Source: a virus
Taxonomy: Duplodnaviria; Caudoviricetes
IMG/VR virus record: IMGVR_UViG_3300021431_004083
Location: 187,550-251,549 of that record
DNA length: 64,000 nucleotides
Reading direction: 5' to 3' (one strand)
The position numbers and the translations under genes are program-made. The notes under the pieces were generated by a model that saw only the letters and a list, made by a program, of their open reading frames with translations, was not told the origin of the DNA and searched no databases. Positions 10,274 to 33,021 of the stretch are shown here, one piece after another (position 1 is the first letter of the stretch; each line of letters opens with the position of its first letter).

Positions 10274-10855
10274 TCAAGGCTCAGGTTGATAATCAGGCGT
10301 ATCAACATCAGGCGACGGTAAATCAGGAACCATACGAGCAAATGTTTTGTTCAAACCGTCCTCGACCGACTCATAACCCGGCTTCTCCCGATACTTGCCG
10401 ACATCACCATCCTTTGTAATTTCACCCGCAAACCGTTCAACAGCGGCATCGTCAGCCTGATTCTCAGACTGATTGGCCAACTTACGACCATCGCTTACGA
10501 TTTCCTTCTTGAGCGCCTCAAAACAAGCGTCTTTGATACGATTACGACCGGCTCGCGTATCGTGTTTCATAGCATCAAGCTTACCTTCGTTATATGCCTC
10601 AACAGCACGGGAATCAGACGAAAGCTCCTCTTCATAAGCAACACGCCTTTCGTCTCGGACGCCCTCGAACTCACCGACGCCCGCTTCTTGTCGCTTTCGC
10701 TCGTCGCGCAATTCATCGTAGTCCAAATGACTCGCGTCATACTGATGCTGTTCCTCCAATGAATGCTGACCTTTCGTATCGTTACCTGCAGCGCCGGTAA
10801 CACGATTCGCTGTCACCCTTCGCAATACACGCTTCGCTTTACTCATAAACAACAC
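10274..10855 (-). CDS. hypothetical charged protein with RMVP...Y tail
   Basis: ORF with RBS. Confidence 0.7.
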   Translation of the reverse strand: MLFMSKAKRVLRRVTANRVTGAAGNDTKGQHSLEEQHQYDASHLDYDELRDERKRQEAGVGEFEGVRDERRVAYEEELSSDSRAVEAYNEGKLDAMKHDTRAGRNRIKDACFEALKKEIVSDGRKLANQSENQADDAAVERFAGEITKDGDVGKYREKPGYESVEDGLNKTFARMVPDLPSPDVDTPDYQPEP

Positions 10856-10867
10856 TCCTTCAAGATA

Positions 10868-12547
10868 TTACATTTGATAATCATCATCAAAATCATCAAC
10901 ATCTCTCACATCATCAAAGTCTATTGTGACATACCGACCATGAGGACTATCCGTATGGCTGTCTTCAACATCTATCGACTGATAAGCAGGCTCATTGACC
11001 TCACGAATTGGACGACTCGCTTCATAATCGATTTTGATATCAGGCTTTGCCTGAGACGAATCAAAACAATCATGGTCCTTCGCAAAATCAACAAGCGTCG
11101 CGTAATCGGCAACGAAATTAGGCACATAATTCTCAGGATAGGTGACAAACCCACGCACCTCGCCGACATGAAGCGGTCTCTCCCTGTACTTACAGGAATC
11201 GACATCAACGCCGAATTGCTCTTTGATAGCGTCGCGATTATTTTCCATATAATCATTGAAAAACGCTTTATAATACCGCATCATTTGCGGATTATCAACA
11301 AACATATCGCAAACCCTTGATGACGGCTGTTCATTCGTCAACACGGCCTTTGTCTGTTGGACAGCATCGTATTCGCACAACGACTCAAGCGCGGCATACT
11401 TCGCAACAACGTTGATGTCCTCAGACAAGTAACCATCTTCCGACATTGACCATCCGATATTCTGCGTACGCTTAACAAAAGCGTCATCAATACGAAGGTT
11501 CTTAAACTCCTCAACAAACTGAGAGGGGTCGTCCCACTCTCTCATATTGGCTCGCAAATAAGCCTTCATAACATCAAAATGTGTCGACAAGCCTTGCGGC
11601 GGTCTCGGATGGAATGTTCCCGTAAAATCCTCACCCGTCTCAGGGTCGAAAAACTCGCCATCCCAATGAAGCGTTGTCGAACCGTCAGGATTCGTCACAC
11701 GACGATACTCGCTTTGCTGTGCCTCTCCTGTCGAAACCTCAGTAAACCAAGACATCGTTTCCGGGTCGGCTTCAAACATTTGACCTGCAATAATACGAAC
11801 CGAACGGTCAATATCCTCACGGGAAACGCCGTCGGCAGCTGCGGCTTCATACAAAGCTTCATGCGCTTTCTCCCATGCCTCCTGTAAACCTTCGATATCA
11901 GCACCTTTCTTGCGCATCGCATGATATGTCGTTGTGGAAAACGCAATCGACTGCATAGCCGCGCGTTCAGCGTCAAGAGGTCGCTGAAACTGAGAATAAC
12001 GACGACGTCCACTAAACGAATCAAACGATGACTTATCATCGTTTTGTCTTGCTGCGCGTTGCTTCTTTCTCAAATCAGACACACCATCATGTTTAGCAAA
12101 CAGCTTCGACACAGCGGTATACGACAAAAACCGACCGAGCGACTCGCCAAAGCCGCCTTGACGGCAACCGCGCATCATTAACGGAGCAAAGCACGCTAAA
12201 CGCATTGACCTATCGATATAGTCATGCATAATTAATCGCTGCACATCATAGAAGCTCAAATGCAAATCGGCATCCTTCAGCGTCTTGTCTTTCTCGTATG
12301 ACTTAACAAAATCACTGCAATAAGACTCCCAACGATGAGAATCCCAACCAAATGTATCTGTCGCAAAATGCAAACTATCTATCAACTGATTGTTATTGAT
12401 AGCACGGTCAATATTTCTGCGATGCTGCCAATAAACAGCGGAACGTTCGTCTTCCGTATTCATCGAAACACGACCGCTATTCGCGCTCCGTGAATTATTA
12501 TTACCTGACGGTCCGTCTCTTCTTAATCGTCGCGCCATACAAATCAC
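10868..12547 (-). CDS. hypothetical protein with acidic C-terminus
   Basis: 559-aa ORF with AGGAG RBS. Confidence 0.8.
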   Translation of the reverse strand: MICMARRLRRDGPSGNNNSRSANSGRVSMNTEDERSAVYWQHRRNIDRAINNNQLIDSLHFATDTFGWDSHRWESYCSDFVKSYEKDKTLKDADLHLSFYDVQRLIMHDYIDRSMRLACFAPLMMRGCRQGGFGESLGRFLSYTAVSKLFAKHDGVSDLRKKQRAARQNDDKSSFDSFSGRRRYSQFQRPLDAERAAMQSIAFSTTTYHAMRKKGADIEGLQEAWEKAHEALYEAAAADGVSREDIDRSVRIIAGQMFEADPETMSWFTEVSTGEAQQSEYRRVTNPDGSTTLHWDGEFFDPETGEDFTGTFHPRPPQGLSTHFDVMKAYLRANMREWDDPSQFVEEFKNLRIDDAFVKRTQNIGWSMSEDGYLSEDINVVAKYAALESLCEYDAVQQTKAVLTNEQPSSRVCDMFVDNPQMMRYYKAFFNDYMENNRDAIKEQFGVDVDSCKYRERPLHVGEVRGFVTYPENYVPNFVADYATLVDFAKDHDCFDSSQAKPDIKIDYEASRPIREVNEPAYQSIDVEDSHTDSPHGRYVTIDFDDVRDVDDFDDDYQM

Positions 12548-13332: not shown

Positions 13333-13617
13333 TTATTCGTTCAGCAACGTTTTCATCGCAACACTTGTCGTAAAAGCAATAGCCCTGTGCTCAGGTATCA
13401 AAATACGCTCCTGCGTCCTCGGGTCGGTGCCGTAACGGGGTTTACGGACAACGATATCTAACTTGCCGATTTTCGGCAAAGTCAAATGCTCACGCTCAAC
13501 AAGTGTGCTCGCCAATGTCTTGATGACAGCGTCATACGCCTTCTCAGCATAAACTCGCGAAAAGAACACATCAGGGTGCTCCTTCATCAAACGACTCACC
13601 ATTTCCTGTTTCGACAA
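13333..13617 (-). CDS. hup: HU/IHF-family DNA-binding protein
   Basis: LTLPKIGKL...RKPRYGTDPRTQERILIP...IAF matches the HU arm motif. Confidence 0.85.
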   Translation of the reverse strand: MSKQEMVSRLMKEHPDVFFSRVYAEKAYDAVIKTLASTLVEREHLTLPKIGKLDIVVRKPRYGTDPRTQERILIPEHRAIAFTTSVAMKTLLNE

Positions 13618-13960
13618 TACCGTTACCCCCTTCCGTCAACTTTTTACGAATCTCCTCTTGGGGCTTCGCCGACGCAGCAAACTTCACAACATAATAATCC
13701 TTGATTTTACCCTGTTTACCGGACTGAAAATCCATCACGGCGTGTCCTTTTCGTTTATTCAAATAAAAACGACCGAAATCACGAAGCGATATCTCGTTGC
13801 CTTCTGACAACTCAAGGAAAATACGGTTAACGATCGCGTCATAAATACATGTCACAAGACGACTCAAACCCAAACGCTTCATAAAAGAAGACGGATAAAA
13901 CGCCTCGACATCCTTTGTTACACGGCGGAGAAACTCCGACCGATTAATCCTCTGTCTCAT
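13571..13960 (-). CDS. second HU/IHF-like protein
   Basis: ISLRDFGRF...RKG...DFQSGK...VKF motif. Confidence 0.75.
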   Translation of the reverse strand: MRQRINRSEFLRRVTKDVEAFYPSSFMKRLGLSRLVTCIYDAIVNRIFLELSEGNEISLRDFGRFYLNKRKGHAVMDFQSGKQGKIKDYYVVKFAASAKPQEEIRKKLTEGGNGIVETGNGESFDEGAP

Positions 13961-14069: not shown

Positions 14070-14831
14070 TCACACAATACCGAACTCAACCTCGGAAAAA
14101 CGCTTAGTTACATCAAAGAACGAACGCGGCAGAGGTCGCAAGCGAGCAAGCCCCGCCGCCTCACGCGCTAATCGATCAGCAACAGCCATCCCGGAGTTCT
14201 TTGAACGGGGAACGCCCGCTTTCTCGGCTTGCTTGTTTGTCTTATGACTTGGGATATGCGTAAACCGAACAATAATATCATTCGCATCAAGCATATTAAT
14301 ACCGTCAAGATAACACTTGCGCAATGAATCGCTCGCTTTTCCGTTCCCCCGTGCCCAATCCTGACAAGCCATACAATCATGATGGATAGTGATGTCATGA
14401 ATGTCAAGCTCCTTTACCCTATCAAATAGGGCAAGCATACCGTTCACCTCGGCTTCCAAAGAACCGCGCCTTTTATTATCAGCAAGCTGAGAGCCCGACA
14501 ACACATAACGAGAACCGTTATAATCAATAAAACCGCCGTAACCCGATACACCTGTTCTCTCATTGAAAGAACCGTCAATAAACGCGTAAGCGCGAGAGCT
14601 GTCGTCAATAAAAACATGACGACGTTCCGCGTCAATGATTTCTTCTATTGACAGGCCGAAATAATCAGGCTTGCGTAAACAAAGAGCCGCCAACGAACGA
14701 GACGGACAGCCCTTGACACGAGAAACAGGCGCGTCTTTTATCTTATCATCGAACTCGTCATGAGACATAAAAACACCATGAAAAGTAGGCGTCAAAACCG
14801 CAAAATAAACAGGCGCCTTTGCTTTTGCCAT
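14070..14831 (-). CDS. rnhA: ribonuclease HI with N-terminal hybrid-binding-like domain
   Basis: FIDGSF, EAEVNG, IHHDC, HIPSH and ADRLA catalytic pattern; start refined to MAKAK after GGAGG. Confidence 0.85.
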   Translation of the reverse strand: MAKAKAPVYFAVLTPTFHGVFMSHDEFDDKIKDAPVSRVKGCPSRSLAALCLRKPDYFGLSIEEIIDAERRHVFIDDSSRAYAFIDGSFNERTGVSGYGGFIDYNGSRYVLSGSQLADNKRRGSLEAEVNGMLALFDRVKELDIHDITIHHDCMACQDWARGNGKASDSLRKCYLDGINMLDANDIIVRFTHIPSHKTNKQAEKAGVPRSKNSGMAVADRLAREAAGLARLRPLPRSFFDVTKRFSEVEFGIV

Positions 14832-14850
14832 CAAAAGGCAACCTCCTTTC

Positions 14851-15750
14851 TCAATCGTATTGCCTGTCCTGTTCAACAGGCGACGAGAAATCAAAAGAAG
14901 GCAAAGGTCTATCGGCACGGTCAAAGCCTGACACGCTGTCCTCCGTTTCAACAGAAGGTTCATTGTCGATTTGAACAGACACTTCCGCCGACCGATACGA
15001 TTGCAAAAACGTTTGATAATCCTCACCGAGAGACAAAATCAAATCATCCGACACAGGCAAACCCACCGCCTTATCGGCATGAACGCGAGAAAATAAGGAA
15101 TATTTCTCCAAGAACAATTGAGATTGCCAGTTCATATAATCAAAAAATAATGAACGAGACGAACGCACCGTACCATCTACACGAGCGACATTATCAGGAG
15201 ATGCTTTCGCCCGAAGAAAACCATCGAAAGAAATGCGCATCTCAGCCTCAGTTGAACGATAATGACGAACATCACGATTCACACAGCGGGTGAAAACATC
15301 AATAAAGGCCTGTCGGTTTTGTTCTGACGCAAACGAACCGTTCGTCACGAACTGCGTCTCAAGCGCGTATAATCGATTTTTATCTTCTATCTCCTGTTCG
15401 GACACGACAGGTGCTTTCGGCTTGTGCAGCATATCCCCCAATTCACTGAGATACTCACCAAACCCCGCGAATTTAGCAAACGAAGAAACATCTTCGATAT
15501 CACGGTGCGTTATTGCGGAAACACGGGAACAAAGCGACATAAAAATATCCTCGGAAGAAAAGGAAACAGCCGACATGTCGCAATACTTATCAAAGTCGGT
15601 ATGAATATTGACGCCTTCGATATCACTCAAATCGTCATAAAGCAAAGAAGCATCCGTACGATTATTTCGGTTAAAATATAACGAACGATACAGCTCTCTA
15701 ACGGCGTCGCCGTAATACCTGTCATAATCATCAACAGCCATCAAAATCAC
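14851..15750 (-). CDS. hypothetical protein with RPLP...Y tail
   Basis: 299-aa ORF. Confidence 0.75.
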   Translation of the reverse strand: MILMAVDDYDRYYGDAVRELYRSLYFNRNNRTDASLLYDDLSDIEGVNIHTDFDKYCDMSAVSFSSEDIFMSLCSRVSAITHRDIEDVSSFAKFAGFGEYLSELGDMLHKPKAPVVSEQEIEDKNRLYALETQFVTNGSFASEQNRQAFIDVFTRCVNRDVRHYRSTEAEMRISFDGFLRAKASPDNVARVDGTVRSSRSLFFDYMNWQSQLFLEKYSLFSRVHADKAVGLPVSDDLILSLGEDYQTFLQSYRSAEVSVQIDNEPSVETEDSVSGFDRADRPLPSFDFSSPVEQDRQYD

Positions 15751-16815: not shown

Positions 16816-19800
16816 TCAATAATTAGGAGCATCGCTCGCTTTGGACACACTATGGAATCCCAAATCAAACGGAGTCTGTATCCTCGGTCTCTGACCGACA
16901 CTTGCGGACGTTGCCTTCGCAGCAACAGCCTGTGTTTGATAGTCACCCTCAACAGAACGACTCTGAACACGCTTATCCTTACTGTGGAGCTGATTGAACG
17001 CCTCAGGCGCGGCGTCATGGGCGATGTTCCAAAGAATCAACTCAGGCGCGTAGACATAGGCGACGTTACCGTCGTTCAACGCCTTATCGAACGTCTCCTT
17101 CGCCTTTGACGCATCTTCGATACCGGAAAGCTGTCGCTTTATTGCGTTGACATCGATACCGTAAATATTCAGGCTGCCGCCCGCTTCCGCGATATGAGAA
17201 GCAAAACTCTTCAGATTCGGATGATATGCCTGCTCCAGAATCTCAGAACGATGCGTTGCCACACGCTCGATACTACCGATATACTTATTACCCTTATTAT
17301 CGGTCAAAGTCATCGCGCGAGATATCAAATCCATATACTCAGGATTCACAGCAGCGTCACAACCAAAAGGACTCGTAGCGAAATCAGTAAACTGTTTCTT
17401 CCACTCTTCAGGAGACAAACGGTCCTTTGCTCTTGCTTCATCGGCTATCCAAATAGGGTTGCCGTCAGCATTGACAGACGTTTTGATTGCCTTGCCCGCC
17501 CACAACGCTTTCAACGGAGAATCCGATGTCAACACGTTATGTATCAAACGGCGAGCTTGCTCGACGTTGTGCTTTGCGCTCAAAGCAGACTGTGTCATGC
17601 CCTCAGATATATTGATACCGGCACGACACGCGGACTTACCCTCACAAGCAGACGGTCCGTCAAAGAACGCACCGAGCGTTGCTGTAATGATATGCTGTGT
17701 CTGTTTGCCGTAAGAGCCTGTGAACTGGTTCTTAGCGGATAACGCTGTCTGAGTAGCGACACGGTCTTCCCATGTCGATAACGTATGACCTTCATCCTTG
17801 ATGGTCGAATAATCAACCATCAGCTTACCGTCGGCGTCCTTACAAATATGACCGTCTTCATCACGCTCCGCGTCAAACGTCACGCCGAGATAACGACAAT
17901 ACTTATCGAATGAATCGGGCTTACCCTTGGAACCGTTCTCGATACAAGCGGCAACAGAACGGAGATTATTCTCAAGACTATCGAACTGAATGACGTTGAT
18001 ACCGCAGTCAGCTTCCTGCGCGTCAATGTACCAATCATTGAACTCTTCGAAATGCTTCTCGTTAGTCGCCATCCATTCAATATAATTCTCATCACGCAGA
18101 TGATAATCATCATTGAACTTATCACGGAGAGCGGAAAGCCGCTCACCGAGCTCAGGATGCGCGTCGCACACAGCTTGTATATCAAGACCTGTATCATAAT
18201 ACAAATCGAATTTGCCGTCCTCGGCAACATAATGGGTATCAAGCGCGTTATTAACAACGCCGAAATTGCGAATCAACTCATCAAGCGCCTGCTTACCCTT
18301 GATTTTAGTAATACCGATCGTATCACCGTCGAAATCACCCGCTAATGACTTCATCAAAAGCGGACTGACGCCGACGACATCCTCATAATCGGAATCGATA
18401 TGAATCTTCGGAGCACGGATACCGCCGTCAGACAAAATCGGGTCACGCCAAATCATCGCGTAATCGCCGTCAACAAAGCCCAAACGCTCCGCCATCTTGG
18501 CGCCCATCGTTATCTCTTCGATTTTGCAACTGGGGTTTGCCACCCAAACAACAGTCGCCGAATTCGGCAACGGACGCGCGAGCGTCTGCTTGAACAAACC
18601 GTGCTTACTGTGGAATACTCTCGCTTCTAAATCATTTGTGATGGAGTTCCTGTACTCCTTCTCAATGCTTGCGCGAAGACTGTTCATCTTACCGAAATCA
18701 TCGACAGAGCTCTGGTTCTCCTGCAACGCCTTATATTCCAACGAATTCATCAAAATACGCTGATAGGCATAGGTATAACCGTGATAAATATCAGGGCCGT
18801 CGCCGTTGCTATCGAAGCCTGAACGCAAATACGGAGGCAACAGCGGCAACAAATAGTTACCGTTGGGCTGACCGTCATCACCGTAAGATTCCATCAACGG
18901 CATACCGGACGGAAGCGTCATCTGGAACGGAACCTCGATAAAACCGCCGTAAGAATTCAACTGAGAGAACATCTCATTACGCATCGCTTCTTTATCAACA
19001 ATACGCTCGCCGTTCTCATTAGTTGTATATTGCAGCTCGGGCAAACGAACGACCTTACGTTCCTCGCCCTCGTGCTCGGAATAGCCTAAATGCGCGTTGC
19101 CGTATTCATCTACGTCAAAGCCGAGAGGAATCAAACTCTCACGCAAACGCTCAAATGAAGCGACGTCGGAGCCCTTGAACTCACGAACAATCGATTTCGC
19201 GTTGTTCGCAATCAAGGCTGCAGTCAGCTGCGCCGAAGCAGAACGTCCCTTACCGGAATGAGCGTCATAAACATGAAGCTTGCTGTCAGCTGTCTGCTCA
19301 TTGATAATGACATCCAAACGGCACAAAGCGCCGGGAATGTCCTTGCCGTCAATATGCAAAACACCGCCGTCAGGCACATTACCTTTCGCGTAACCGTCCA
19401 TCGCCTCACGTGTCGTATAACCGTCAAAACGACCGGGGAAGGTCTGCGGAGACATAACAAAATCAAGCGACGGATTATCCTTGAAAAGCTTCCACGGCAT
19501 ATAATGACCGGAATACATAGCATTACGTTCAGGCACATCGGTATCGACGATTCGAGCGGCAGTCGCCTTATTACCGCCGCCGACAGACGCCTTGTCACCG
19601 GACATAAGAGAACGCATCTCAATCGCGTCATCGAGAGAATCGAGCAGCTTATCATCATCAAAGCCGAGCTGTGTCAACACAGCATTGACGCCCTCGACGC
19701 CGTTTTCCTCAGCAAAACGCTTCGAAAAAAGCACGGAGTCATTCATCGTATAACAACCGATAGTCGCAAACGCGCCGACAGCAGGAGCGACACGACGACA

Positions 19801-22800
19801 CGAGAGCAAATTGCTTGCGCGCATCATATCACGGTCCGTCGGAGAATACTGAGCGTAAGGCATATGATTACGCACCAAGCGTGTTTCCTTCAATTCCTCG
19901 TCATCCGTCGGAATAATCAAATGACCGCTGTTTTGTCCGCGCTTCTGAAGAACGGCGCCGTCAGAAAGACAGCGATTCAAACCCATAGACGAATTGACGC
20001 TCGTAACGGTCTTTGAGGTATAACCGTTATCGGTCAGAATAGAAATATCTTCAAAACCGGAACGTACAAACGGGTCTGTGATATTCAAATCATTCGCAAG
20101 CCCCTTACGGTCGGATAACGCGTACAAGGAAGCCGCGCGAATAGTAGAATTGCCATATATGCTCGGCAAATGAAAACGACGAGACAATGTATAAATCTTA
20201 TCGTCGAAAAGCTCAGGAGACATACCGGTACGCTTATTCTTCTCAAGAATATTGAGCGGAAAACGCTCGCTGCGCAACATACGATATGTACGATTGAGAG
20301 CGGTATTGCTCTCGAAATCAGGCACACCCTTTACGATATCCGAACGAACACGAGCTGTAATGAAATCATGAAGAACATCGGCATAACCGCGCAGACATAA
20401 ACGCTCCTCGTATGTCTTATTCTCGCCGGGCTTTTGCGGAAGAATATCCGCCTCATAGTCAGGTACAAACAAATAATTATCGTCGTGATTGAATTTCGTC
20501 TCAATCAAACCCATACCATCAGGCAAAAAGACTTGCCCGATAGTACCTTCGACAGGCTCATAAGAGATATTCGTGCCTGTCATCGACTTATTCAAATCAT
20601 CAACAACGATACGACGTGCTTTATATTTGATGATACCATTATCATCAATAAAGGCATCCTTTGATAAATCAAAATCACAACCTGTCGCCGTGATAGCGTT
20701 CGTAAGCGAATCACAAACAGATTGAATGATTTCCTTCTGCGGACCATCCTGATAAGAATCAAGCAGGTTCTTCAGCGAAGTCTGTGAAGCTTCATCAAAC
20801 TGAACAAGACCTTCGCAAAAAGCATTGAACGAAGAACCCTCGCCTTTGAACTTATCACGAGACACATTCGCGGCGAGAAAAGCAGCGGATAACGCTCTAT
20901 GCGAAATATCGCCTGTCGTATTGGTGGTCGTCATATAGCGAGACACCAATAACGGATTGATAAGACAATCATCCGGCGAATTATAATAACCGATGCGCTC
21001 CGGCATAAACTGATTGGAAAGCTGACTCATCAAGCGTTCCTTGGTCAGCTCACGGTCATAAGAGGAACCATCATCCTCTTGTGCCTGACGAATCAATGCC
21101 CAGAACGACTGCTGCACAGAAGAGATGACGCTGTCTTCATCGAAAACAGGCGTATAATCCATACCATGCGTATCAGCCTCATCCAACAACCTGTCAATAT
21201 CGACAGAAGAAGCGAACATCAGCTTCGCGGAATCAACAGCTTCCATAATGAACTGATTTGCTTCCTCAGCTGAACTGAAGGAAATATTGCGATATCGACG
21301 CTTATTGTCGACAATCATGTGTACCTTATTCGTCGTAGACATCTGCGCGGGCTTATTGCTCGTCGCATAAGAAATCGGCAAACCGTCAATGCCAAGCGCT
21401 TGGTTACGGTTATTACGACGAACAAAACAACGATTCGGCAACGGCTTCACATCGGCTCTGAACATCCGATGCCCCTGCTTTGTCGTATGATAAAAACTGT
21501 TCTGACGGACAGACGGAATATTCATCCTCGCCTGACGGCTGTACATCGTTGTGTTATAAGAACCAAACTCACCGAGATTCGCGACATCGGGAGTCACACC
21601 GACGGCATAATCAACAACAGCTAACCTGTCCTCAATCGGAATCATATATTCCGCGCGAACCTCACCCTGCCATTGACGACCGTCTTTACCTGTGCGAACC
21701 TTCGGTATTTTCTTACCATCCTCCAAACGGTAACGACCGTCTTGACCCAATTCATAATCAGGAACCGTTTGATCGGTACTTGCGTAATAAACAAGACCGC
21801 CATTATAACAACGACCGATATTATTCTCATAATTCGAAGGACTCGTGATACGAATGTGTGTCTTATTGGCTGTAACAGCGTTAACATGTCCCGCGGCATA
21901 ACTCGTATCAGGCTCAATCGTATAAGAAACACCCTTATCATTCAAATGATGCAAAATAGCCACACTCGAACGAATCGCTGTTTCAGACATAGGAAACCCG
22001 GAGCTTTTTACCCATCTGTCAATATTCTCAATCGACTCGGGATTCTTCTGCGGAACATACCGGTGCAGATACGAAAGACCATAAAGGTCATTCTCACTGC
22101 GAAGAACCATAGGCGCCGTATCACTGTTCGGGGTAACAACGCGACCGTCTTCTCCCAACATCGAATCAGCGTCGGGCGACGCATAAAGAGGAATTCTCTC
22201 ATAAAAAGCGTTCATATCGGTATCCATATAAGGGATGCCGGAAGCATTACACAACGACATACCGCCGTTTCCGTTATCCTTATCACCGACAGGCGCATAA
22301 ACAGCAGAACCATTGGATGACAAAGCCCATTCACACATGAAAAAGCGTGAATCATAAGGAGACAACGGAGCAAAACCACGAGCGAACGACTGACGAACAT
22401 CACCGGCTATCTTAGACAGACCGTCATTAGACAAACAGTCAAGGTCATCACGACCTGTCTTGGCTTTGATAAACGCACGAAGAGCGTTAGCGAAATTACT
22501 TGCCGTGATATTATCCATATCAATCGGCATAGTCTTTCGCATATTAAACGCTGTCAGCGTATCGTCAGAGAAATAAGACATACCTGTTGTAATAAACTCT
22601 TCATGCAGCTGACGAGCGTAAGACAAAGGAATACCTCGCTCTCCTTCGGCCTGTAATGTCTCGTTTAATGAAAACATCGCCTCACGAAAAACGGATTCGT
22701 TCAACAGACGACGTACGAAAGGTGAATAGGTAGACTGACCGCTGTAAACAGCGTTCCTACCGGAAACAACACCTCTGTCGGTACGGAGCTGATTACGATA

Positions 22801-22857
22801 GCAACGCTCGCTCGCTTCGTTACGTCTTTGTATCGGGTCGGCTAACAACACACTCAT
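16816..22857 (-). CDS. single-chain two-barrel DNA-dependent RNA polymerase (beta-like and beta-prime-like regions fused)
   Basis: beta-like motifs PTDRDMMRAS, YTMNDSVLFS, GDKASVGGGNK and DFVMSPQTFPGR, then beta-prime-like LPLLPPYLR, KHGLFKQTL, WRDPIL and catalytic AGDFDGD; start refined to ATG at 22857 behind GGAGG. Confidence 0.9.
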   Translation of the reverse strand: MSVLLADPIQRRNEASERCYRNQLRTDRGVVSGRNAVYSGQSTYSPFVRRLLNESVFREAMFSLNETLQAEGERGIPLSYARQLHEEFITTGMSYFSDDTLTAFNMRKTMPIDMDNITASNFANALRAFIKAKTGRDDLDCLSNDGLSKIAGDVRQSFARGFAPLSPYDSRFFMCEWALSSNGSAVYAPVGDKDNGNGGMSLCNASGIPYMDTDMNAFYERIPLYASPDADSMLGEDGRVVTPNSDTAPMVLRSENDLYGLSYLHRYVPQKNPESIENIDRWVKSSGFPMSETAIRSSVAILHHLNDKGVSYTIEPDTSYAAGHVNAVTANKTHIRITSPSNYENNIGRCYNGGLVYYASTDQTVPDYELGQDGRYRLEDGKKIPKVRTGKDGRQWQGEVRAEYMIPIEDRLAVVDYAVGVTPDVANLGEFGSYNTTMYSRQARMNIPSVRQNSFYHTTKQGHRMFRADVKPLPNRCFVRRNNRNQALGIDGLPISYATSNKPAQMSTTNKVHMIVDNKRRYRNISFSSAEEANQFIMEAVDSAKLMFASSVDIDRLLDEADTHGMDYTPVFDEDSVISSVQQSFWALIRQAQEDDGSSYDRELTKERLMSQLSNQFMPERIGYYNSPDDCLINPLLVSRYMTTTNTTGDISHRALSAAFLAANVSRDKFKGEGSSFNAFCEGLVQFDEASQTSLKNLLDSYQDGPQKEIIQSVCDSLTNAITATGCDFDLSKDAFIDDNGIIKYKARRIVVDDLNKSMTGTNISYEPVEGTIGQVFLPDGMGLIETKFNHDDNYLFVPDYEADILPQKPGENKTYEERLCLRGYADVLHDFITARVRSDIVKGVPDFESNTALNRTYRMLRSERFPLNILEKNKRTGMSPELFDDKIYTLSRRFHLPSIYGNSTIRAASLYALSDRKGLANDLNITDPFVRSGFEDISILTDNGYTSKTVTSVNSSMGLNRCLSDGAVLQKRGQNSGHLIIPTDDEELKETRLVRNHMPYAQYSPTDRDMMRASNLLSCRRVAPAVGAFATIGCYTMNDSVLFSKRFAEENGVEGVNAVLTQLGFDDDKLLDSLDDAIEMRSLMSGDKASVGGGNKATAARIVDTDVPERNAMYSGHYMPWKLFKDNPSLDFVMSPQTFPGRFDGYTTREAMDGYAKGNVPDGGVLHIDGKDIPGALCRLDVIINEQTADSKLHVYDAHSGKGRSASAQLTAALIANNAKSIVREFKGSDVASFERLRESLIPLGFDVDEYGNAHLGYSEHEGEERKVVRLPELQYTTNENGERIVDKEAMRNEMFSQLNSYGGFIEVPFQMTLPSGMPLMESYGDDGQPNGNYLLPLLPPYLRSGFDSNGDGPDIYHGYTYAYQRILMNSLEYKALQENQSSVDDFGKMNSLRASIEKEYRNSITNDLEARVFHSKHGLFKQTLARPLPNSATVVWVANPSCKIEEITMGAKMAERLGFVDGDYAMIWRDPILSDGGIRAPKIHIDSDYEDVVGVSPLLMKSLAGDFDGDTIGITKIKGKQALDELIRNFGVVNNALDTHYVAEDGKFDLYYDTGLDIQAVCDAHPELGERLSALRDKFNDDYHLRDENYIEWMATNEKHFEEFNDWYIDAQEADCGINVIQFDSLENNLRSVAACIENGSKGKPDSFDKYCRYLGVTFDAERDEDGHICKDADGKLMVDYSTIKDEGHTLSTWEDRVATQTALSAKNQFTGSYGKQTQHIITATLGAFFDGPSACEGKSACRAGINISEGMTQSALSAKHNVEQARRLIHNVLTSDSPLKALWAGKAIKTSVNADGNPIWIADEARAKDRLSPEEWKKQFTDFATSPFGCDAAVNPEYMDLISRAMTLTDNKGNKYIGSIERVATHRSEILEQAYHPNLKSFASHIAEAGGSLNIYGIDVNAIKRQLSGIEDASKAKETFDKALNDGNVAYVYAPELILWNIAHDAAPEAFNQLHSKDKRVQSRSVEGDYQTQAVAAKATSASVGQRPRIQTPFDLGFHSVSKASDAPNY

Positions 22858-22964
22858 AATAAAAAGCCTCCAATCTAAAATAAAAAAGCAGAAACGACAG
22901 TGCATTTCTGCTTCGAAACCCGTATTCAATCACAAAGCAAAAATCCGTCTCTGTCTCTGCTTGT

Positions 22965-23168: not shown

Positions 23169-24098
23169 TTAATCAAAACTGATTTGTTCATACTCTCGCG
23201 AAACAGAAGAGTCAGCGGTCGGCGCAACATGCTCCAAAACCGCAGGCATCTGTCGCTCATTCTTATAGATATTTGCACGACGAAAAGTAGAATCCTCTGC
23301 GGAATTCAACGTACTGAACCGAATGTTTGACTGGTCAAAAGAGCCCCGAACAACATGAGAACCGTGAAACTGCGAAGAACAAGCGTTCATCCGCTCCAAA
23401 GAAGACTGAGAAACTGACGTATGTCCCTGAACTTCCGCGCTGTATAACTTACTGTTATAAACTGAAGAATTGCCCCTGACAGAAGATTCATGCACAACAC
23501 TATCCACCTTTATATCAGAAGCATCGACAGTACTGCCGTCAACATTGCTTTTAAAAACAGAAGAAGAAGAAATCTTCGAGCCTGACACATGCGCGTTGTC
23601 AAGAACGCTCAACATGATATTGGAATTAGCAGAAGGCGAAAATCCCAAATCAACCGTAGAAGAATCTACAATAGAACCCGAAATGTACGAACCAAATCCA
23701 ACATTACTCTTCGTAACATAAGAACCGGAAACATCACCGCGCACAAAGCTGTCGCCGACATAAGAACGACCGGATATGCGTGAGGTTCCCAAAACAACAG
23801 TATTGGGGGAGCCATAAGACATATCCTCATAAGAAGAATCAAACGACATAAAACCGATACAGTCACCCTTCTTTACGGCAGGGGAAAACAAGCCCCTCTT
23901 ACGCATGAGCTCATTCGCCCAAGGCTGTATATTCACCAAAGCGTACGCGGGAAAAACAGTATAAGAACAACCGTCCCCATCTGTTATATTACGAGGGTCG
24001 TTATAGTCTTTATAATAGTGAGCATGCTCACTCTTGGCAAAATCCTTTGCTGTTTGTCTTTTAGACTTTATTGCTTTGTTTCTTTTTAAAAAACGCAT
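23169..24098 (-). CDS. Ser/Val-rich protein, probable beta-helix
   Basis: VKKGDCIG motif followed by short periodic S/V/G repeats; RQMP...F tail. Confidence 0.65.
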   Translation of the reverse strand: MRFLKRNKAIKSKRQTAKDFAKSEHAHYYKDYNDPRNITDGDGCSYTVFPAYALVNIQPWANELMRKRGLFSPAVKKGDCIGFMSFDSSYEDMSYGSPNTVVLGTSRISGRSYVGDSFVRGDVSGSYVTKSNVGFGSYISGSIVDSSTVDLGFSPSANSNIMLSVLDNAHVSGSKISSSSVFKSNVDGSTVDASDIKVDSVVHESSVRGNSSVYNSKLYSAEVQGHTSVSQSSLERMNACSSQFHGSHVVRGSFDQSNIRFSTLNSAEDSTFRRANIYKNERQMPAVLEHVAPTADSSVSREYEQISFD

Positions 24099-24121: not shown

Positions 24122-24337
24122 TTAACCACCGAACTGATAATCATCCGAAAACTCATATTCCTCCGGCAGGTTGCGCGGTAAACGACGAGCCCGCTGACGA
24201 GGATTCGCTTCGACATCATGACGAATACGAGCGTTTCCGTCATCAAGCGATTTTCTCGAATCAAAACCACGAGATAACGCTTCATCCTCGCTGATATAAC
24301 GACCGACAGACGCGTCATAAAAACGGTTATTCGACAT
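24122..24337 (-). CDS. small protein with RRLP...F tail
   Basis: 71-aa ORF with AGGTGG RBS. Confidence 0.65.
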   Translation of the reverse strand: MSNNRFYDASVGRYISEDEALSRGFDSRKSLDDGNARIRHDVEANPRQRARRLPRNLPEEYEFSDDYQFGG

Positions 24338-24439: not shown

Positions 24440-27400
24440 TCAAAGAATACGCTTTCGTATAAAAATAACAAAAGGCAAACAACACAAAAGCAAAACAAAC
24501 GCAATAATATAATACAATGCAGAACCCATACCGCCTGTATCAGGCATTATCAATTCTACAATATTAGATACACTGACATTTACCTCTGTACGATTACCCG
24601 CTTCATCGAAAAGAACAACTGTCTCCTGTCCGTTTTCGTGAAAACGTTTTGTCAAACGCGTTCCGTCATTCGACAAAACCCAACCGTCAACAGGCTGTAC
24701 GGTTTCATCCGCATCTATAGTGACGTCAACAGGCTCCGTCGTATAAACATCTGAACTGTAAGAAACAACAGCGCTCGGTGCGGTGGTATCTGTGCCTGTC
24801 TTATTCAGACGCAAGCTCGGACGAAGAACCGTAAAAACGTCCTTGCCGAACAACACCTTCAGCTCGTTTGCCGAATTGATTTTCGGTGACAAATCACCAA
24901 ACAAACGATAGATAGACTTAACAGATTCGCCGTCTTTTTTCTCTTCCTTTATACCGATAAATCCAAATAACTCTTCGCCGTTCACCGTGATTTTATCATC
25001 CTCTTCCACATACATGAAATAATAAAACCCGCTTTCAGACGGATAAGCCTTTTTGGCGGTCTGCTCATTGCGATAAACCAAAATGTCACCCGTCTGGAAG
25101 TTATCACTGCGAATATTAGGCGCTCTATCGGTCCTCTCACCCAAACGAGACGGCTGCTCGTATGTTTTCAGCCGTTGAAACAAACTACCGTCTGCCCTCT
25201 CTTTAATGAACAAACCACCATAATAACCGGGAAGAAGCATATCAAAATAACTATTATCCTCATTCAGATAAATAGATGACTTCTTCTTGTCCGCATACCA
25301 AAAATGATGCCGCATACGCTGTTTCACAAGGTCATCGATATCATAATCAGCCAATCCGGGAGAAAAACTAAGACCTTTGTTATAGATATCCTCGACAAAA
25401 TCAGCACCGGACAAACCACCAAACTGTGAATCATGCAGCAACGTTGTCATTCTCGACAAAAGACTCTGTTTCTGTTCATCATTCAAATTATAACCAATAG
25501 TGGTCTCAACAGTAGACGTCGCGATATTATCAACATATCCTTCAGATATGACCTTCTTACCGCAATACTCAACACGATCTGACACTCGAACTGTAAAAGT
25601 CAACGTCAATCGCTCACCGGGAGATAATTCATCATTGACGTCCCAAACCACCTCATTGTCCGAAACAGAAGCGTTTGGCGCTGATTCAAGCGAACTCCAC
25701 GACGGTATCTTTTCCCGTACAACAAAAGGTCGATAAGTAGACTTACCCCGATTTTCAATCAAAAGAGAATATGTCAACGAATCTCCGGGCTGCACCACAC
25801 CTCTGTTATAATTATATCCATCGGCAGCCTTATTAACTGTTTTCTCGATATAAATATCTTCATATCTCAATCTCGACATTGTGGGCGCGGGTATTGTGAT
25901 GTCTGTTAACGTACGATCAGTACATACACAACCGTAAATGCTGTTATCGTCGTCCTCATATTTCGTAGCATAATACTGATACGTGGGATTGCCTGATTCA
26001 TCTCGAAGAACAGGACGCAAAATAGCAAAGCTATTCATATCCCTGCAACTGTGCAAAGCAGGCGGACGTCTTTCCGAGCCGTAACGATAATAGATAAGAT
26101 TGCGTTCCGTAATTGTTCCTTCAACGATACCCGTAACACTGTTATTACGTTCCGCATAACTCAAACCGACAAAAGCGGCTTCACCGTCACGTATCTTTGT
26201 CGTGTTTTTGTCATAATTGCTGCCTGACTCTCGTATAAGCGCGTCGACAACATTGTTGTTTTCATCACGAACCAAATCATAAACCATACAAGTATGCCCG
26301 CGACCCGAGGCTTCCTCACCATGGGACCAACATATAACATCACCGGGACGCAGACCAACATCATTTAACAAATAATTACCATACGCAACAATATCATCCG
26401 AGATATTCCCGTTCTCATGATAAGGCGAGACAGTTTTTTCGTTGCCCTCATTATCGTAAAAAACAAAGGGCTTACTATCCTGTCGTTCCCAATATTCTAC
26501 AACGCCATTAGCGTCAACGGCACTTGGGTCATAATAAGCCTTAGCATACGCAAGCATATTCTGCACGGCAAACGGTATTGATATACCAAGCCCGTTATAA
26601 TATTCCAAGAAAGTAAAGCCCGAACACACGGTATGCATCATATATTGCGAAGTCGCTTGCTCAGGCGCCATATAATTGGTCTTTCGAGCAGTACAATACT
26701 GCAAATCAATTCCCCTGTTATAGTAGGCATCCATTGTTGCCTTTACAGCAGCCTCAAGCAGAACATCGGCACTGATGGTGCTGATATCAACAACAGTCTT
26801 TTCGATATCACCTGCATGAGCTGATATCTTTAAACGGAAATCATGAACACGGTCCAAAAAATCAGTTATTTTATCTTTTGTCGAAGCCTCTGCATTAAAA
26901 CAAAGCGAATAAATACCGACAAAACCGCTTTCCAAGCTTCCTTTACTGTGTTCAGGGTACTCAGTTATTGTTTCCGTTTTACCTGTAGCGCAATCAACCA
27001 ACTCATACTTGATTTCGCTCAAAGGATAGTTAGAATAAACTGTACCCTTAAGACCGTCATGAATATCGTCAATTGTATTAGGCTGCAAAACCTCGATAAA
27101 CGGCAAGTCACGCTCCTTGTTAACAAAGACATTCAATCGAGCAGGAACAAAATCAGTATTCAACAGCTTTTGAAAAGATACCTTCCGATTTACATTAAAA
27201 CATTTCGTCACACCTGAAAGGTCATCAAGTGACGAGATATCTGTATAATCGGGATTAGGTGTAAACGGAACAATGACATCTGTCGAAGAAAGCCTATATT
27301 CGTCGGAAACAGAAGCCTCGGGACCCGCCGTCGAAATAGCGATGTCCGTGCAAATCACATAACTCGCTTCCCCGTCGATATTACCCGACTCATCTCTGAC

Positions 27401-28834
27401 AACATGCGGATAGCCTGAAGCCATCCTCACATGCGAATAATTAGACGTATGTGACGAAATCGTATCAGCAGGCTTTAACTCGGCATACGCCTCAAATAAA
27501 TCTTGAGCGGTATAATACTCATTAGTGCCCGGTTTATAATCAAACGAATCGAAAACAACATCAGATGAACCGCCATTAAGAAACGCTGATGGCGGAACTA
27601 TCTTAGTCGAACGCTTCGTACCGGACAAAATTAGATTGCCAAGCGGAGTAACAAGATGGCTGTCGAACGCTCTCGACACACAATCAGTACCGACCATATC
27701 ACCACAATATCTACCCTGCGCAAAACTCACGGAATAAGAACAATCCTGCCCCGGCAGCCTATTCATATCATCAGGTACATGTAACACATGCGTCAAAGGT
27801 GAATCAGACGTCGTTTCGCAAAGACCGTCAAAAACCCCCAAGGTAACACGGTTTCGTTGCGTATACGGAAGACCGTAATAAGAAACACCCGGTATATATC
27901 GAGCGACAACTCTCTCCGTATCGCCCAACGTACGCACGTCTCGTGCCTCTTTATCAGGTGTCCACTTATAAGTCGCTTCGTTATACATCTCCTGAACGAT
28001 TTCAGTGCGTAATTCTTCCTCCTCAGTCTCGTCGATTGTATCGGTTTCTACATACGACGGTTTCTCATAAACAGAATCTTTATAACCAACGAGCTTGACG
28101 CCGGAAAAATTAAAGTCACCCGTCGTACGCCAATCGCCCGTAAAAGTTACATCTGTATTAATGTACTGAGGATAATTTCCGTAGGGCAAAATATCAATCT
28201 GACTGATAGCGGCGCCATCGTCAATTGAAATCGTATCACTTATCAGATTAAAATTACGCTCATAATATTTGTAATCAGACTGAGATAAAGATGAACGCTC
28301 ATATAGTCCCGTAAATTCCCAATAATACAAACCAAAAGGACCGTGGCGATGTCCGTTAGAATCAGTAACAAAAATCTGCAAGCCATCAGTCTTCATCAAA
28401 GATGTATGAGAGAAACACGAAAAATAATCAATGACAAGCCTCACATCATTGTAACGATTCAAAGGCGTTGAACTGATACCTGATGAGATTGTGATTGTCA
28501 AAGGCTCGTCATCTGTATTAGACATATTACTTTTAAAGTTCTTACGAAAAACAAAAGAACGCTTTAGATTACCGTGATCGTCTGTTTGATTTTTTGCTAC
28601 GAAACAACCACTGCGATCAGCATTGGACGGCCATTTCCTTCGACAAGCAGAAACCTCATCCGTATCATCGACACGTGCTTCATAAAGCACGTCGGTAGAA
28701 TCATCTTCCGCAGCATCGTTGTCAGACGTCGCGGATACCGTCGCAAACGGAAATGATAAAAATATCAAAAGAACAACCAGAACCAAGGATGAAACCGAAA
28801 TAAAAAAATTCTTTGATAATGTACTAAACATCAA
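24440..28834 (-). CDS. large sortase-anchored surface protein with two putative papain-like (NlpC/P60-type) domains and a DUF11-like domain
   Basis: signal peptide; GQDCS...SHVRM and TVCSGF...PGDVI...GHTCMV Cys/His motifs; VQPGDSLTYSL; C-terminal MPDTGG, TM segment and RKR. Confidence 0.8.
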   Translation of the reverse strand: MMFSTLSKNFFISVSSLVLVVLLIFLSFPFATVSATSDNDAAEDDSTDVLYEARVDDTDEVSACRRKWPSNADRSGCFVAKNQTDDHGNLKRSFVFRKNFKSNMSNTDDEPLTITISSGISSTPLNRYNDVRLVIDYFSCFSHTSLMKTDGLQIFVTDSNGHRHGPFGLYYWEFTGLYERSSLSQSDYKYYERNFNLISDTISIDDGAAISQIDILPYGNYPQYINTDVTFTGDWRTTGDFNFSGVKLVGYKDSVYEKPSYVETDTIDETEEEELRTEIVQEMYNEATYKWTPDKEARDVRTLGDTERVVARYIPGVSYYGLPYTQRNRVTLGVFDGLCETTSDSPLTHVLHVPDDMNRLPGQDCSYSVSFAQGRYCGDMVGTDCVSRAFDSHLVTPLGNLILSGTKRSTKIVPPSAFLNGGSSDVVFDSFDYKPGTNEYYTAQDLFEAYAELKPADTISSHTSNYSHVRMASGYPHVVRDESGNIDGEASYVICTDIAISTAGPEASVSDEYRLSSTDVIVPFTPNPDYTDISSLDDLSGVTKCFNVNRKVSFQKLLNTDFVPARLNVFVNKERDLPFIEVLQPNTIDDIHDGLKGTVYSNYPLSEIKYELVDCATGKTETITEYPEHSKGSLESGFVGIYSLCFNAEASTKDKITDFLDRVHDFRLKISAHAGDIEKTVVDISTISADVLLEAAVKATMDAYYNRGIDLQYCTARKTNYMAPEQATSQYMMHTVCSGFTFLEYYNGLGISIPFAVQNMLAYAKAYYDPSAVDANGVVEYWERQDSKPFVFYDNEGNEKTVSPYHENGNISDDIVAYGNYLLNDVGLRPGDVICWSHGEEASGRGHTCMVYDLVRDENNNVVDALIRESGSNYDKNTTKIRDGEAAFVGLSYAERNNSVTGIVEGTITERNLIYYRYGSERRPPALHSCRDMNSFAILRPVLRDESGNPTYQYYATKYEDDDNSIYGCVCTDRTLTDITIPAPTMSRLRYEDIYIEKTVNKAADGYNYNRGVVQPGDSLTYSLLIENRGKSTYRPFVVREKIPSWSSLESAPNASVSDNEVVWDVNDELSPGERLTLTFTVRVSDRVEYCGKKVISEGYVDNIATSTVETTIGYNLNDEQKQSLLSRMTTLLHDSQFGGLSGADFVEDIYNKGLSFSPGLADYDIDDLVKQRMRHHFWYADKKKSSIYLNEDNSYFDMLLPGYYGGLFIKERADGSLFQRLKTYEQPSRLGERTDRAPNIRSDNFQTGDILVYRNEQTAKKAYPSESGFYYFMYVEEDDKITVNGEELFGFIGIKEEKKDGESVKSIYRLFGDLSPKINSANELKVLFGKDVFTVLRPSLRLNKTGTDTTAPSAVVSYSSDVYTTEPVDVTIDADETVQPVDGWVLSNDGTRLTKRFHENGQETVVLFDEAGNRTEVNVSVSNIVELIMPDTGGMGSALYYIIAFVLLLCCLPFVIFIRKRIL

Positions 28835-32358: not shown

Positions 32359-33021
32359 TCAATACGATGGACTTTGCTTTGACTTAGAAGCATCCTGTCC
32401 CTGCAGCTCAGGGGGCGACGGCAAAGGACGCAGCTTCGTTGATACGCTGAAAAAAGAATCAGGAGAAAAACCGCAAGCGTCACGCAACTCGCAAAGAATC
32501 GCGACGGTATCCTTTCGCTGCTCTGCCGTATACGCCGGATTGTTAATAAAGTCCTTATCGAGAAACGAAAAGGGAACGTCATCCTGTGTCGCGCCGTCAT
32601 AAACAATGTCATCGGACAATGCCGATTCTAAGATACGACGAACATTCTCCTCAGGGGAAATACTCGTACTGTAAGCGGGACAACCTTTTACAAAACCAAA
32701 GTAACGATTGTAAATAAAACCACGCATAGCGTCAGGCGACAAAGAACCGTCGGGATGCTCATTGCGTATCTCTGAAGAAATCGAACGGAACAATACATCG
32801 TTTGTAATCGATAACAAATGCAGCTCACGCTGTTCCGCAACAGACAACTCTCCGTCGAAAAATTCTTTATCCTTCAAATCGTTGATTCGATGGTTCAATG
32901 TGTACTTAACATTGTCATCGTCTTTATCATTTGTCGAAAAAACAGAATTAACAATATCACGCATAACAAAATCAATCCTTTCTTTCATACTCAAGCTCTT
33001 TACAATATCATCATAACACAA
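32359..33021 (-). CDS. hypothetical protein with RPLP...Y tail
   Basis: 220-aa ORF. Confidence 0.7.
   Translation of the reverse strand: MCYDDIVKSLSMKERIDFVMRDIVNSVFSTNDKDDDNVKYTLNHRINDLKDKEFFDGELSVAEQRELHLLSITNDVLFRSISSEIRNEHPDGSLSPDAMRGFIYNRYFGFVKGCPAYSTSISPEENVRRILESALSDDIVYDGATQDDVPFSFLDKDFINNPAYTAEQRKDTVAILCELRDACGFSPDSFFSVSTKLRPLPSPPELQGQDASKSKQSPSY

Follow-up and report, generated by a model that had tools for sequence, protein, structure and literature searches.

The stretch of DNA analyzed here, referred to as the window, is the final 64 kb (64,000 nucleotides [nt]; positions 187,550 to 251,549) of the 251,549-bp IMG/VR record IMGVR_UViG_3300021431_004083. Its minus strand carries a gene at 16816..22857 (stop codon included) that encodes a predicted single-chain RNA polymerase of 2013 amino acids (aa) and 224 kDa. 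Coordinates are those of the window unless given as genome positions, which refer to the whole record. An earlier note, made from the sequence alone, had described one open reading frame (ORF) of ~2010 aa on a mobile element, with motifs of bacterial beta followed by those of beta-prime and with a perfect host sigma-A promoter in front. We found a single intact frame, open without interruption from 16816 to 22929, in which the first ATG, at 22857, is the likely start; a GGAGG ribosome-binding site (22871-22867, minus strand) ends 9 nt ahead of it. The promoter was located as well, at 22993-22965 (minus strand), where TTGACA-17-TATAAT agrees with the sigma-A consensus at 12/12 positions, as judged by this match only. 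A protein identical to the polymerase is found in a public protein collection as P0002. The chain appears to consist of an N-terminal module of ~700 residues, a pruned beta part, and, fused to it, a pruned beta-prime part.

All six of the motifs named in the earlier note are present where it had placed them, in the order beta then beta-prime and on the minus strand. In the beta part, a further motif, YTMNDSVLFSKRF (19714..19752), which includes the invariant D1040, aligns to NFEDAIVIS of beta, and GDKASVGGGNK (residues 1087-1097, 19567..19599) contains the invariant beta-barrel lysines K1089 and K1097. The exact positions of the beta-part motif DFVMSPQTFPGR (residues 1132-1143) and of the motif GRSASAQLTAAL (residues 1204-1215) were also confirmed. 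In the beta-prime part, LPLLPPYLR (residues 1337-1345, 18823..18849) aligns to LPVLPPDLR, and WRDPIL (residues 1470-1475, 18433..18450), with invariant R1471 and P1473, aligns to NRAPTL. These are followed by AGDFDGD (residues 1506-1512, 18322..18342), which holds the catalytic Mg-binding triad D1508, D1510, and D1512, likewise invariant.

Two further motifs of the minus strand lie beyond the catalytic triad. The conserved NGSKGK, or GAKG block (residues 1641-1646, 17920-17937), precedes TALSAKNQFTGSYGKQTQH (residues 1704-1722, 17692..17748), a bridge-helix-like motif with conserved A1705, K1709, T1713, G1714, and G1717. The GAKGS block aligned with SGARGS of the host beta-prime at a non-significant score of -1.8 bits. 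We liken TALSAKNQFTGSYGKQTQH to the bridge helix on the basis of our own comparison with E. coli beta-prime, and the AlphaFold model described below has a helix at 883-914 (model numbering) in this region. The second motif, MTQSALSAKHN (17566..17598, with TQSALSAKH at residues 1755-1763), has conserved T1755, Q1756, L1759, K1762, and H1763 and presumably represents the trigger loop, if we are right to equate it with GTQLTMRTFH of E. coli beta-prime; the trigger-loop region of Rpb1 is covered by the structural alignment.

Eight residues are common to all two-barrel polymerases, namely, the Asp triad of DxDGD, Rpb2 D837, K979, and K987, and Rpb1 R446 and P448 (Ruprich-Robert and Thuriaux, PMC2919709). 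All eight align with the corresponding beta and beta-prime residues in the protein studied here, D1040 being the equivalent of Rpb2 D837 and of Thermus thermophilus (Tth) beta D686 (PMC2919709). The eight residues (D1040, K1089, K1097, R1471, P1473, D1508, D1510, and D1512) are invariant in 58 relatives that are ~25-60% identical to the polymerase. Invariance among relatives this divergent is the pattern expected of a working enzyme.

Searches with the single sequence gave weak matches. NCBIfam returned nothing, PHROGs returned RNA polymerase beta matches only (1e-3), and the PDB matches were to the P23-45 tape-measure polymerase (8H2N, 8e-4) and to AR9 beta-prime (7e-3). A word-indexed search found 11 relatives of 1823-2003 aa together with a more distant match of 3196 aa. 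Precomputed annotations place PF00623 on most of these relatives and PF00562 on one of them also, and a Pfam rescan found RNA_pol_Rpb1_2 in 10/11 (best 3e-12) and RNA_pol_Rpb2_6 in 7/11. The profile built from the 11 sequences matched 116 PDB sequences (best 9e-12), and among the 60 matches listed all were Rpb1/beta-prime chains except the P23-45 polymerase. The beta part, searched as a profile of 30 sequences, matched exclusively beta/Rpb2 chains, down to 3e-7.

A C-terminal family profile of 58 sequences, run over whole bacterial genomes, retrieved a family member first and then the host RpoC (4e-16). Aligned locally with host RpoB and RpoC, this profile paired precisely the motif blocks that had been proposed from the letters: host W-G-Y-N-x-E-D with the ND/DD block of the family, GDKxxxRHGNKG with GDK...GNK, GQRFGEMEVWAL with GKGRxxSxQLAWAL, LPVLPPDLR with LPVLSxxLR, and NRAPTLH...NADFDGD with WRDPxL...GDFDGD. 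The alignment with host RpoC was contiguous over 210 positions, from the lid to DFDGD.

An AlphaFold model of residues 814-2013, built with the 58-sequence alignment, reached a predicted local distance difference test (pLDDT) score of 87.6 and a predicted template modeling (pTM) score of 0.88. We compared it with known structures, as the earlier note had suggested. In Foldseek, the top 50 PDB matches were all largest-subunit (beta-prime/Rpb1) chains (best 3e-10). In VIA, residues 814-1230 (19168..20418, minus strand) aligned with bacterial beta from ~360/400 to ~1090 (Z 16.9; root mean square deviation, 3.3; 333 residues aligned); this beta-like half would comprise the fork region, a double-psi barrel without the flap, and the C-terminal part. 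Residues 1251-1960 (16978..19107, minus strand) aligned in VIA with Rpb1/RPC1 from ~13 to ~1450 (Z 15-16, 440-545 residues aligned) and, as a beta-prime-like half, would comprise the clamp core and lid, the catalytic barrel, the funnel, the bridge helix, and the trigger-loop region. Since the model matches beta and then Rpb1 in series, the homology is collinear over both subunits and reaches beyond the barrels. The predicted model contains the two-barrel fold, as judged by its overall match to both catalytic subunits rather than by strand-by-strand inspection of topology. Sequence profiles and predicted fold thus back the proposal of a single-chain beta/beta-prime two-barrel polymerase on a mobile element.

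The polymerase also departs from the cellular subunits, with which it shares only 10-17% sequence identity. Where Taq beta has 135 residues (the flap) between the ED and GDK blocks, the family profile has 12 positions. The flap, or SBHM insert, is missing, and the beta part is therefore not of the canonical cellular type. NCgl1702-like enzymes are without the SBHM insert (PMC7824862), with which the gap in the present family agrees. A stretch of ~37 residues of the beta-prime barrel region is missing from the family as well.

The N-terminal module, residues 1 to ~700 (20758..22857, minus strand), is family specific and conserved in the relatives. Residues 1-840 were modeled with 56 sequences (pLDDT 82.5, pTM 0.79). 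Foldseek against the PDB gave no match at E<=0.001 for this model, the wide VIA search gave no convincing fold (best Z only 5.8), and neither did the Atlas fold search (TM <=0.24) or the Atlas feature search. We therefore describe this part as a conserved family module without a recognizable fold; the earlier note had proposed that it may recognize promoters. Residues 703-840 (20338..20751, minus strand) weakly resemble the beta1 (protrusion) domain in the predicted model: four independent beta chains (4kbj_A, 8qma_A, 6j9e_C, and 3mlq_A) align to them via this domain at Z 4.8-4.9, and the position would suit the collinearity.

The earlier note had recognized no alpha or sigma gene nearby, and by Pfam this holds across the whole element. 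A six-frame Pfam search of the entire 251-kb record gave no match to Sigma70_r2, to alpha (RNA_pol_L), or to a second Rpb1/Rpb2 domain, and the family profile found no paralogue of the polymerase among the 296 ORFs of the element. In the cellular holoenzyme, sigma region 4 docks on the beta flap. With the flap absent, canonical docking of sigma region 4 is not possible for the polymerase. Because the element encodes no sigma70-type factor and the flap is absent, the polymerase would need no such factor, and we expect it to work without alpha or omega as well.

The gene itself is probably expressed by the host. The 251-kb element has 6 perfect sigma-A consensus promoters, and 27-281 nt downstream of every one a gene starts on the same strand. 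Among 136 upstream regions, 23 come within 2 mismatches of the consensus. With such a promoter ahead of the polymerase gene, the host polymerase would read the gene and so probably makes the polymerase protein. The leader between promoter and start codon is ~100 nt long; a pattern scan found in it a 12-bp hairpin with a T-run (22914-22885, minus strand), which could be an attenuator. A terminator-like hairpin (23050-23012) lies directly upstream of the promoter.

The polymerase belongs to a large family. An exhaustive HMMER search with clustering at 50% identity yielded 381 clusters at E<=1e-3, 281 of them at E<=1e-30. Nearly all members are 1800-2500 aa long and have the same architecture, with an N-terminal extension of 550-1000 aa. 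They occur on plasmids of Streptomyces, Rhodococcus fascians, Gordonia KTR9, Staphylococcus aureus, S. capitis, S. epidermidis, and Lactococcus cremoris. The homologues on the Gordonia, staphylococcal, and Lactococcus plasmids are all annotated "hypothetical"; the staphylococcal plasmids are 55-65 kb, and those of Lactococcus are megaplasmids. Members were also found in genomes and metagenome-assembled genomes (MAGs) of Microbacteriaceae, Actinomyces, Nocardiopsis, Lachnospiraceae, Ruminococcus, and others, as well as on 26 IMG/VR contigs of 67-230 kb. The family is rare, with no member in 400 other sampled Actinomycetes genomes, and tblastn of the polymerase against 50,697 phage records gave no match.

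We called and clustered the ORFs of 49 polymerase loci, which fall into 23 lineages at <60% polymerase identity. The recurring gene order is a ClpB-like double-AAA ATPase, an unassigned protein of ~790 aa, a type IV coupling protein of ~1300 aa (domains T4SS-DNA_transf, TraG-D_C, and TrwB_AAD_bind), the polymerase, an unassigned protein of 420-820 aa, and an HU-like protein. In 33/49 loci and 10/23 lineages, spanning Actinomycetota and Bacillota, the coupling protein is encoded within 6 genes of the polymerase, and several of the lineages without a nearby coupling protein are contigs cut off at the polymerase gene. The same layout is found on complete plasmids of cultured bacteria. On pGKT2, an AAA ATPase and a hypothetical protein lie upstream of the polymerase, itself annotated "hypothetical protein"; in S. 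aureus TUM20888, a "TraM recognition domain-containing protein" and two hypotheticals precede the polymerase, which is followed by a topoisomerase and a "phage tail tip lysozyme." Rhodococcus and Nocardia have both received pGKT2 from Gordonia in the laboratory (PMC5640721, citing Jung et al. 2011). Since the polymerase gene belongs to the DNA-transfer gene set across the family, we take its product to be the plasmid's own RNA-synthesizing enzyme for transfer or establishment.

In the present element, this set is split. The part comprising the ATPase, the unassigned protein, and the coupling protein is intact at genome 64-33 kb, and the polymerase gene has been relocated to 204-210 kb, together with two of its usual neighbors. 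One encodes an HU/IHF-like DNA-binding protein (13571..13960, minus strand), a conserved neighbor of the polymerase in 23 loci. The other encodes a 559-aa protein with an acidic, aromatic-tipped C terminus (10868..12547, minus strand), which is a conserved downstream neighbor in 30 loci and 7/23 lineages; no family or fold was found for it, as its profile against the PDB and an Atlas search gave nothing usable. One neighbor gene of the polymerase carries a dockerin. A 1464-aa protein with a DUF11 repeat (24440-28834, minus strand), for which PHROG and NCBIfam gave no match, is encoded two genes upstream of the polymerase, in the place that the coupling protein has in relatives.

The coupling protein of the element is encoded at genome 58635-33597 (minus strand) in 10 collinear pieces that are 35-78% identical to an uninterrupted Lachnospiraceae gene. 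It was detected with a relative's protein as the query, the six-frame PF12696 search having missed it. The ClpB-like double-AAA ATPase upstream of it (genome 61020-64553, minus strand) contains an intein-like insert (Hom_end / LAGLIDADG_3, residues 746-841), and a second ClpB-like ATPase, without interruption, is encoded at genome 156571-158466. Coupling proteins encoded as several ORFs were also seen in loci L033, L034, L049, L055, and L056, so that interrupted coupling-protein genes may be common in such elements.

Other genes of the element encode a MobL relaxase (2e-53), a topoisomerase IA, RecJ, UvrD, a second D5-type primase, a 935-aa hydrolase that joins M23, tail-lysozyme, and NlpC/P60 domains, a 2276-aa SpaA/Cna_B adhesin, a Gram-positive pilin, and BspA-type leucine-rich repeat surface proteins. 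Relaxase, coupling protein, cell wall hydrolase, and adhesin or pilin, all of them present, are features of a Gram-positive conjugative plasmid. Six-frame translation of the element gave no Pfam match to capsid or TerL, and the ten neighbors of the polymerase gene gave no PHROG match. The element also has 14 copies of a leader, TTCAGTCAATCATATAA(tt)AAAA, followed ~25 nt on by AATCTCTGCTAAA and a hairpin; the copies lie at genome 79, 229, 136697, 136921, 169372, 233595, 233793, 234646, 239906, 249225, 249856, 250786, 251235, and 251387, that is, between 46000 and 64000 of the window and elsewhere. An 89-bp end repeat (genome 1-89 and 251461-251549; window 63912-64000) sits inside an array of leader-hairpin units with a period of ~152 bp, which fits circular closure of the assembly rather than the terminal redundancy of a phage. 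The carrier is most probably a circular 251-kb conjugative megaplasmid. A jumbo phage, the first reading of the record, was dropped in view of the transfer genes, the pilin, and the coupling protein, and because complete plasmids show the same layout. The most likely host is a gut or rumen member of the Eubacteriales: a contig fragment 100% identical over the match was binned with a MAG of the Eubacteriales, and the nearest relatives come from MAGs of rumen Ruminococcus.

A further link between the polymerase and its neighbors is found at the C terminus. The last residues of the polymerase, QRPRIQTPFDLGFHSVSKASDAPNY (16819..16893, minus strand), are a degenerate copy of a tail common to the family and to other proteins encoded by the element. 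In nine of its ORFs, one of them doubtful, R-x-[LMVIT]-P precedes a stretch of 13-21 residues that are mostly acidic or polar and often include an aromatic near the end; most of these ORFs lie within 20 kb of the polymerase gene. As R-x-[LMV]-P plus an acidic or polar tail of 16-19 residues with an aromatic near the end, the tag is present on otherwise unrelated proteins encoded on the minus strand at 2867-4786, 10274-10855, 14070-15026, 23169-24098, 24122-24337, and 32359-33021; the third of these is a 318-aa RNase H-like (RVT_3) protein (14070..15026), in which the tag is R-P-L-P plus the tail.

Across the family, the strict tag was found in 16/150 representatives versus 0.8% at random internal positions, and the last 18 residues had a net acidic charge of 2.9 versus 0.7 in controls. 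Within the loci, an acidic, aromatic-tipped end was present in 30/50 polymerase ORFs versus ~4% of other ORFs. It was also present in 35/35 members of one neighboring cluster (Actinomyces-type elements) and in 7/30 of the 559-aa cluster, and in none of the loci's coupling proteins, ATPases, or HU proteins. A tail common to proteins whose genes neighbor those of a coupling protein and a Clp-type unfoldase suggests that one step of recognition serves them all. Transfer by a type IV system requires its substrates to be unfolded (PMC5826034), and cases of plasmid proteins reaching recipients are known (PMC8406263). As a separate observation, three consecutive proteins downstream of the polymerase bear the same kind of tail in locus L016.

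Taken together, we consider it probable that the protein is an active DNA-dependent RNA polymerase, with two barrels in a single chain, that is encoded by a conjugative megaplasmid and dedicated to conjugative transfer or establishment. We infer its enzymatic activity, its template and place of action, and its role in conjugation from the features above. Our preferred guess, a tentative one, is that it would act on the newly transferred strand in the recipient, making primer RNA for the complementary strand and/or the first transcripts, with the acidic, aromatic-tipped tail as an export or recognition signal. That the polymerase leaves the donor along with the DNA, to prime or transcribe the strand that enters the recipient, is possible, if somewhat doubtful. 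In a more specific version, which we regard as unlikely, the polymerase would be type IV cargo: its tail would be recognized, the ClpB-like ATPase would unfold the 224-kDa chain, and the chain would be pumped, along with the single strand, into the recipient cell. In that cell the polymerase, together with the HU-like and RNase H-like proteins transferred at the same time, would produce the first primers and transcripts independently of the recipient polymerase. If this were true, the exported polymerase would be the plasmid counterpart of phage virion polymerases and could aid transfer across genera.

Several observations weigh against a polymerase dedicated to transfer on a conjugative plasmid. 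The Pfam search of the polymerase protein itself gave no match, and the support comes via the family. The polymerase gene lies ~130 kb from the coupling protein gene in this element, and the synteny is therefore borrowed from relatives. The tail of the polymerase is only a degenerate version of the tag, and a 224-kDa protein would need unfolding to pass a type IV channel. With six perfect sigma-A promoters and 23/136 near-consensus regions, part of the element can be read by the host polymerase. PF12846 found no VirB4-type ATPase in the six frames of the element, in which several large ORFs are without a family, and IMG/VR labels the record a virus with direct terminal repeats, 100% complete by CheckV.

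About equally likely as an exported polymerase is a private transcriptase of the donor cell, by the logic of T7 or YonO, which we also regard as a tentative possibility. The host would make the enzyme, and the enzyme would transcribe a set of the element's genes from its own promoters and never be exported. There is precedent in YonO, a single-chain two-barrel enzyme that transcribes the SPbeta late operon (PMC5467207), no protein export is required, and the missing flap fits sigma-independent initiation. The candidate promoter would be the leader TTCAGTCAATCATATAA, whose 14 copies are conserved at the place of the variable spacer in a sigma-A promoter; a terminator-like hairpin precedes several of them. 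However, the leader is always accompanied by a Cas12a-type repeat hairpin and so may instead be a CRISPR-like leader or a regulator site, and a private transcriptase offers no obvious explanation for the coupling-protein synteny or for the shared C-terminal tail.

We regard it as improbable that the gene encodes a jumbo-phage polymerase, whether carried in the virion to transcribe early genes or produced after infection to transcribe late ones. Such a reading can draw on the IMG/VR label of a 251-kb virus with direct terminal repeats and 100% CheckV completeness, on the relatives among IMG/VR contigs (26 contigs, 67-230 kb), on the D5-type primases, on the weak single-sequence matches to the P23-45 and AR9 enzymes, and on the fact that virion two-barrel polymerases are known (10.1101/2022.12.01.518664). 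But the six-frame Pfam search for capsid and TerL and the PHROG search of the 10 neighbors were negative, the search of 50,697 phage records was too, and the 89-bp terminal repeat fits closure of a circular assembly. Moreover, the element has a relaxase, coupling protein, topoisomerase, wall hydrolase, sortase-type pilin, and adhesins, and complete plasmids of cultured bacteria carry homologues alongside the same transfer genes. Still less probable, to the point of being remote, is a two-barrel enzyme with another activity, whether RNA-dependent RNA synthesis, DNA synthesis as in archaeal PolD, or an idle scaffold of the transfer apparatus. The two-barrel superfamily does include RNA-dependent polymerases and PolD (PMC2919709, PMC7824862), yet in sequence and structure the nearest matches are to DNA-dependent enzymes (beta/Rpb2 and beta-prime/Rpb1, over ~1260 collinear residues) and not to QDE-1, YonO, or PolD, and the invariance of all eight universal catalytic residues speaks against an idle scaffold.

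Compared with cellular RpoB plus RpoC, the polymerase keeps the order of elements and the catalytic residues (ED/D loop, GDK...GNK, LPxLPPxLR, NRxPxL, NADFDGD, bridge helix, and TQ...H). It differs in the length of the collinear part, ~1260 versus ~2500 residues, in being without flap, alpha, omega, and sigma, and in its extra N-terminal module of ~700 aa. Natural RpoB-RpoC fusions occur in Helicobacter and Wolbachia.

The earlier note had named YonO, the crAss-like enzymes, and the NCgl1702 type as known single-chain enzymes. The NCgl1702 type fits best, whereas the collinearity over ~1260 residues and the bridge-helix-like and trigger-loop-like motifs set the polymerase apart from the YonO-like and crAss-like kinds. 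The NCgl1702-type beta::beta-prime fusions, reportedly described by Iyer, Koonin, and Aravind in 2003, are thus the nearest described kind, likened by description. NCgl1702 of Corynebacterium glutamicum (2169 aa) is, like the polymerase, an uncharacterized protein of ~2000 aa with beta before beta-prime, no flap, and recognizable conservation only in the two barrels and the switch and funnel regions, encoded on Gram-positive mobile DNA (PMC2919709, PMC7824862). The account given of it in 2010 was of ~40 conserved residues and no relatives (PMC2919709). The family described here, in contrast, has 381 clusters, Pfam-level matches, a full collinear structural match, a conserved N-terminal module, and a place beside a coupling protein. 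That fixed place and the shared tail may be new features: among the papers searched, none dealt with a plasmid-encoded, conjugation-linked polymerase, though the link to conjugation may already be in print.

Other single-chain enzymes are more distant. YonO of the Bacillus prophage SPbeta is also a single-chain two-barrel enzyme on a mobile element, and it works without host subunits, a precedent for pruned enzymes being active and processive (PMC5467207). It is, however, ~100 kDa, on the RNA-dependent-polymerase branch, and without detectable trigger-loop homology (PMC5467207), whereas the present polymerase is 224 kDa, collinear with beta and beta-prime, has relatives that match Pfam Rpb1/Rpb2, and is encoded among conjugation genes instead of phage late genes. 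The tape-measure-fused P23-45 RNA polymerase (PDB 8H2M/8H2N; 10.1101/2022.12.01.518664) and the crAss-like gp66 share with it a large single-chain two-barrel core, and virion two-barrel polymerases enter the target cell together with the DNA, a precedent for the idea of delivery (10.1101/2022.12.01.518664). Unlike the polymerase, these virion enzymes are structural or ejected phage proteins, with similarity limited to ~70 residues around DFDGD; no virion genes were found in the element by the capsid and TerL searches, and its delivery route would be a type IV secretion channel. Orf6 of the yeast linear killer plasmid pGKL2 is a plasmid-borne, pruned Rpb2::Rpb1 fusion in the same order (PMC2919709), but it is eukaryotic, cytoplasmic, and only ~980 aa, keeps a flap-type insert (PMC7824862), and has no link to conjugation. 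Jumbo phages of the phiKZ/AR9 type have split beta and beta-prime genes and both virion and non-virion sets, whereas the polymerase is one fused gene without a paralogue.

Single-chain relatives of the cellular RNA polymerase bear on the evolution and the minimal size of the enzyme. To our knowledge, only YonO and a few phage virion enzymes among them have been studied at the bench. The present family is closer to the cellular enzyme than YonO is, as it keeps the lid, the bridge helix, and a trigger-loop-like motif, yet is without flap, alpha, omega, and sigma, and its members are found on plasmids of cultured bacteria that are tractable in the laboratory. If the link to the coupling protein reflects function, Gram-positive conjugative plasmids would carry their own transcription or priming enzyme in the transfer apparatus.

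Two minor observations concern related contigs and the region upstream of the gene. Among the IMG/VR contigs of 67-155 kb (L009, L018, and L034-L055) is a set of ~110-120-kb contigs with the order ATPase, coupling protein, polymerase, and HU, together with a MazF toxin and a UvrD-like helicase; one of them is identical in sequence to a contig that was binned to a MAG of an oral Actinomyces. These ~110-120-kb contigs, with their transfer gene order, may be conjugative plasmids rather than phages, and a set of 70-250-kb "viruses" of IMG/VR may be as well. Upstream of the polymerase promoter, a second near-consensus promoter, TTGACA-17-TATACT (23150-23122, minus strand), is followed ~70 nt on by the strong terminator-like hairpin at 23050-23012, and the two may delimit a small RNA of ~90 nt.

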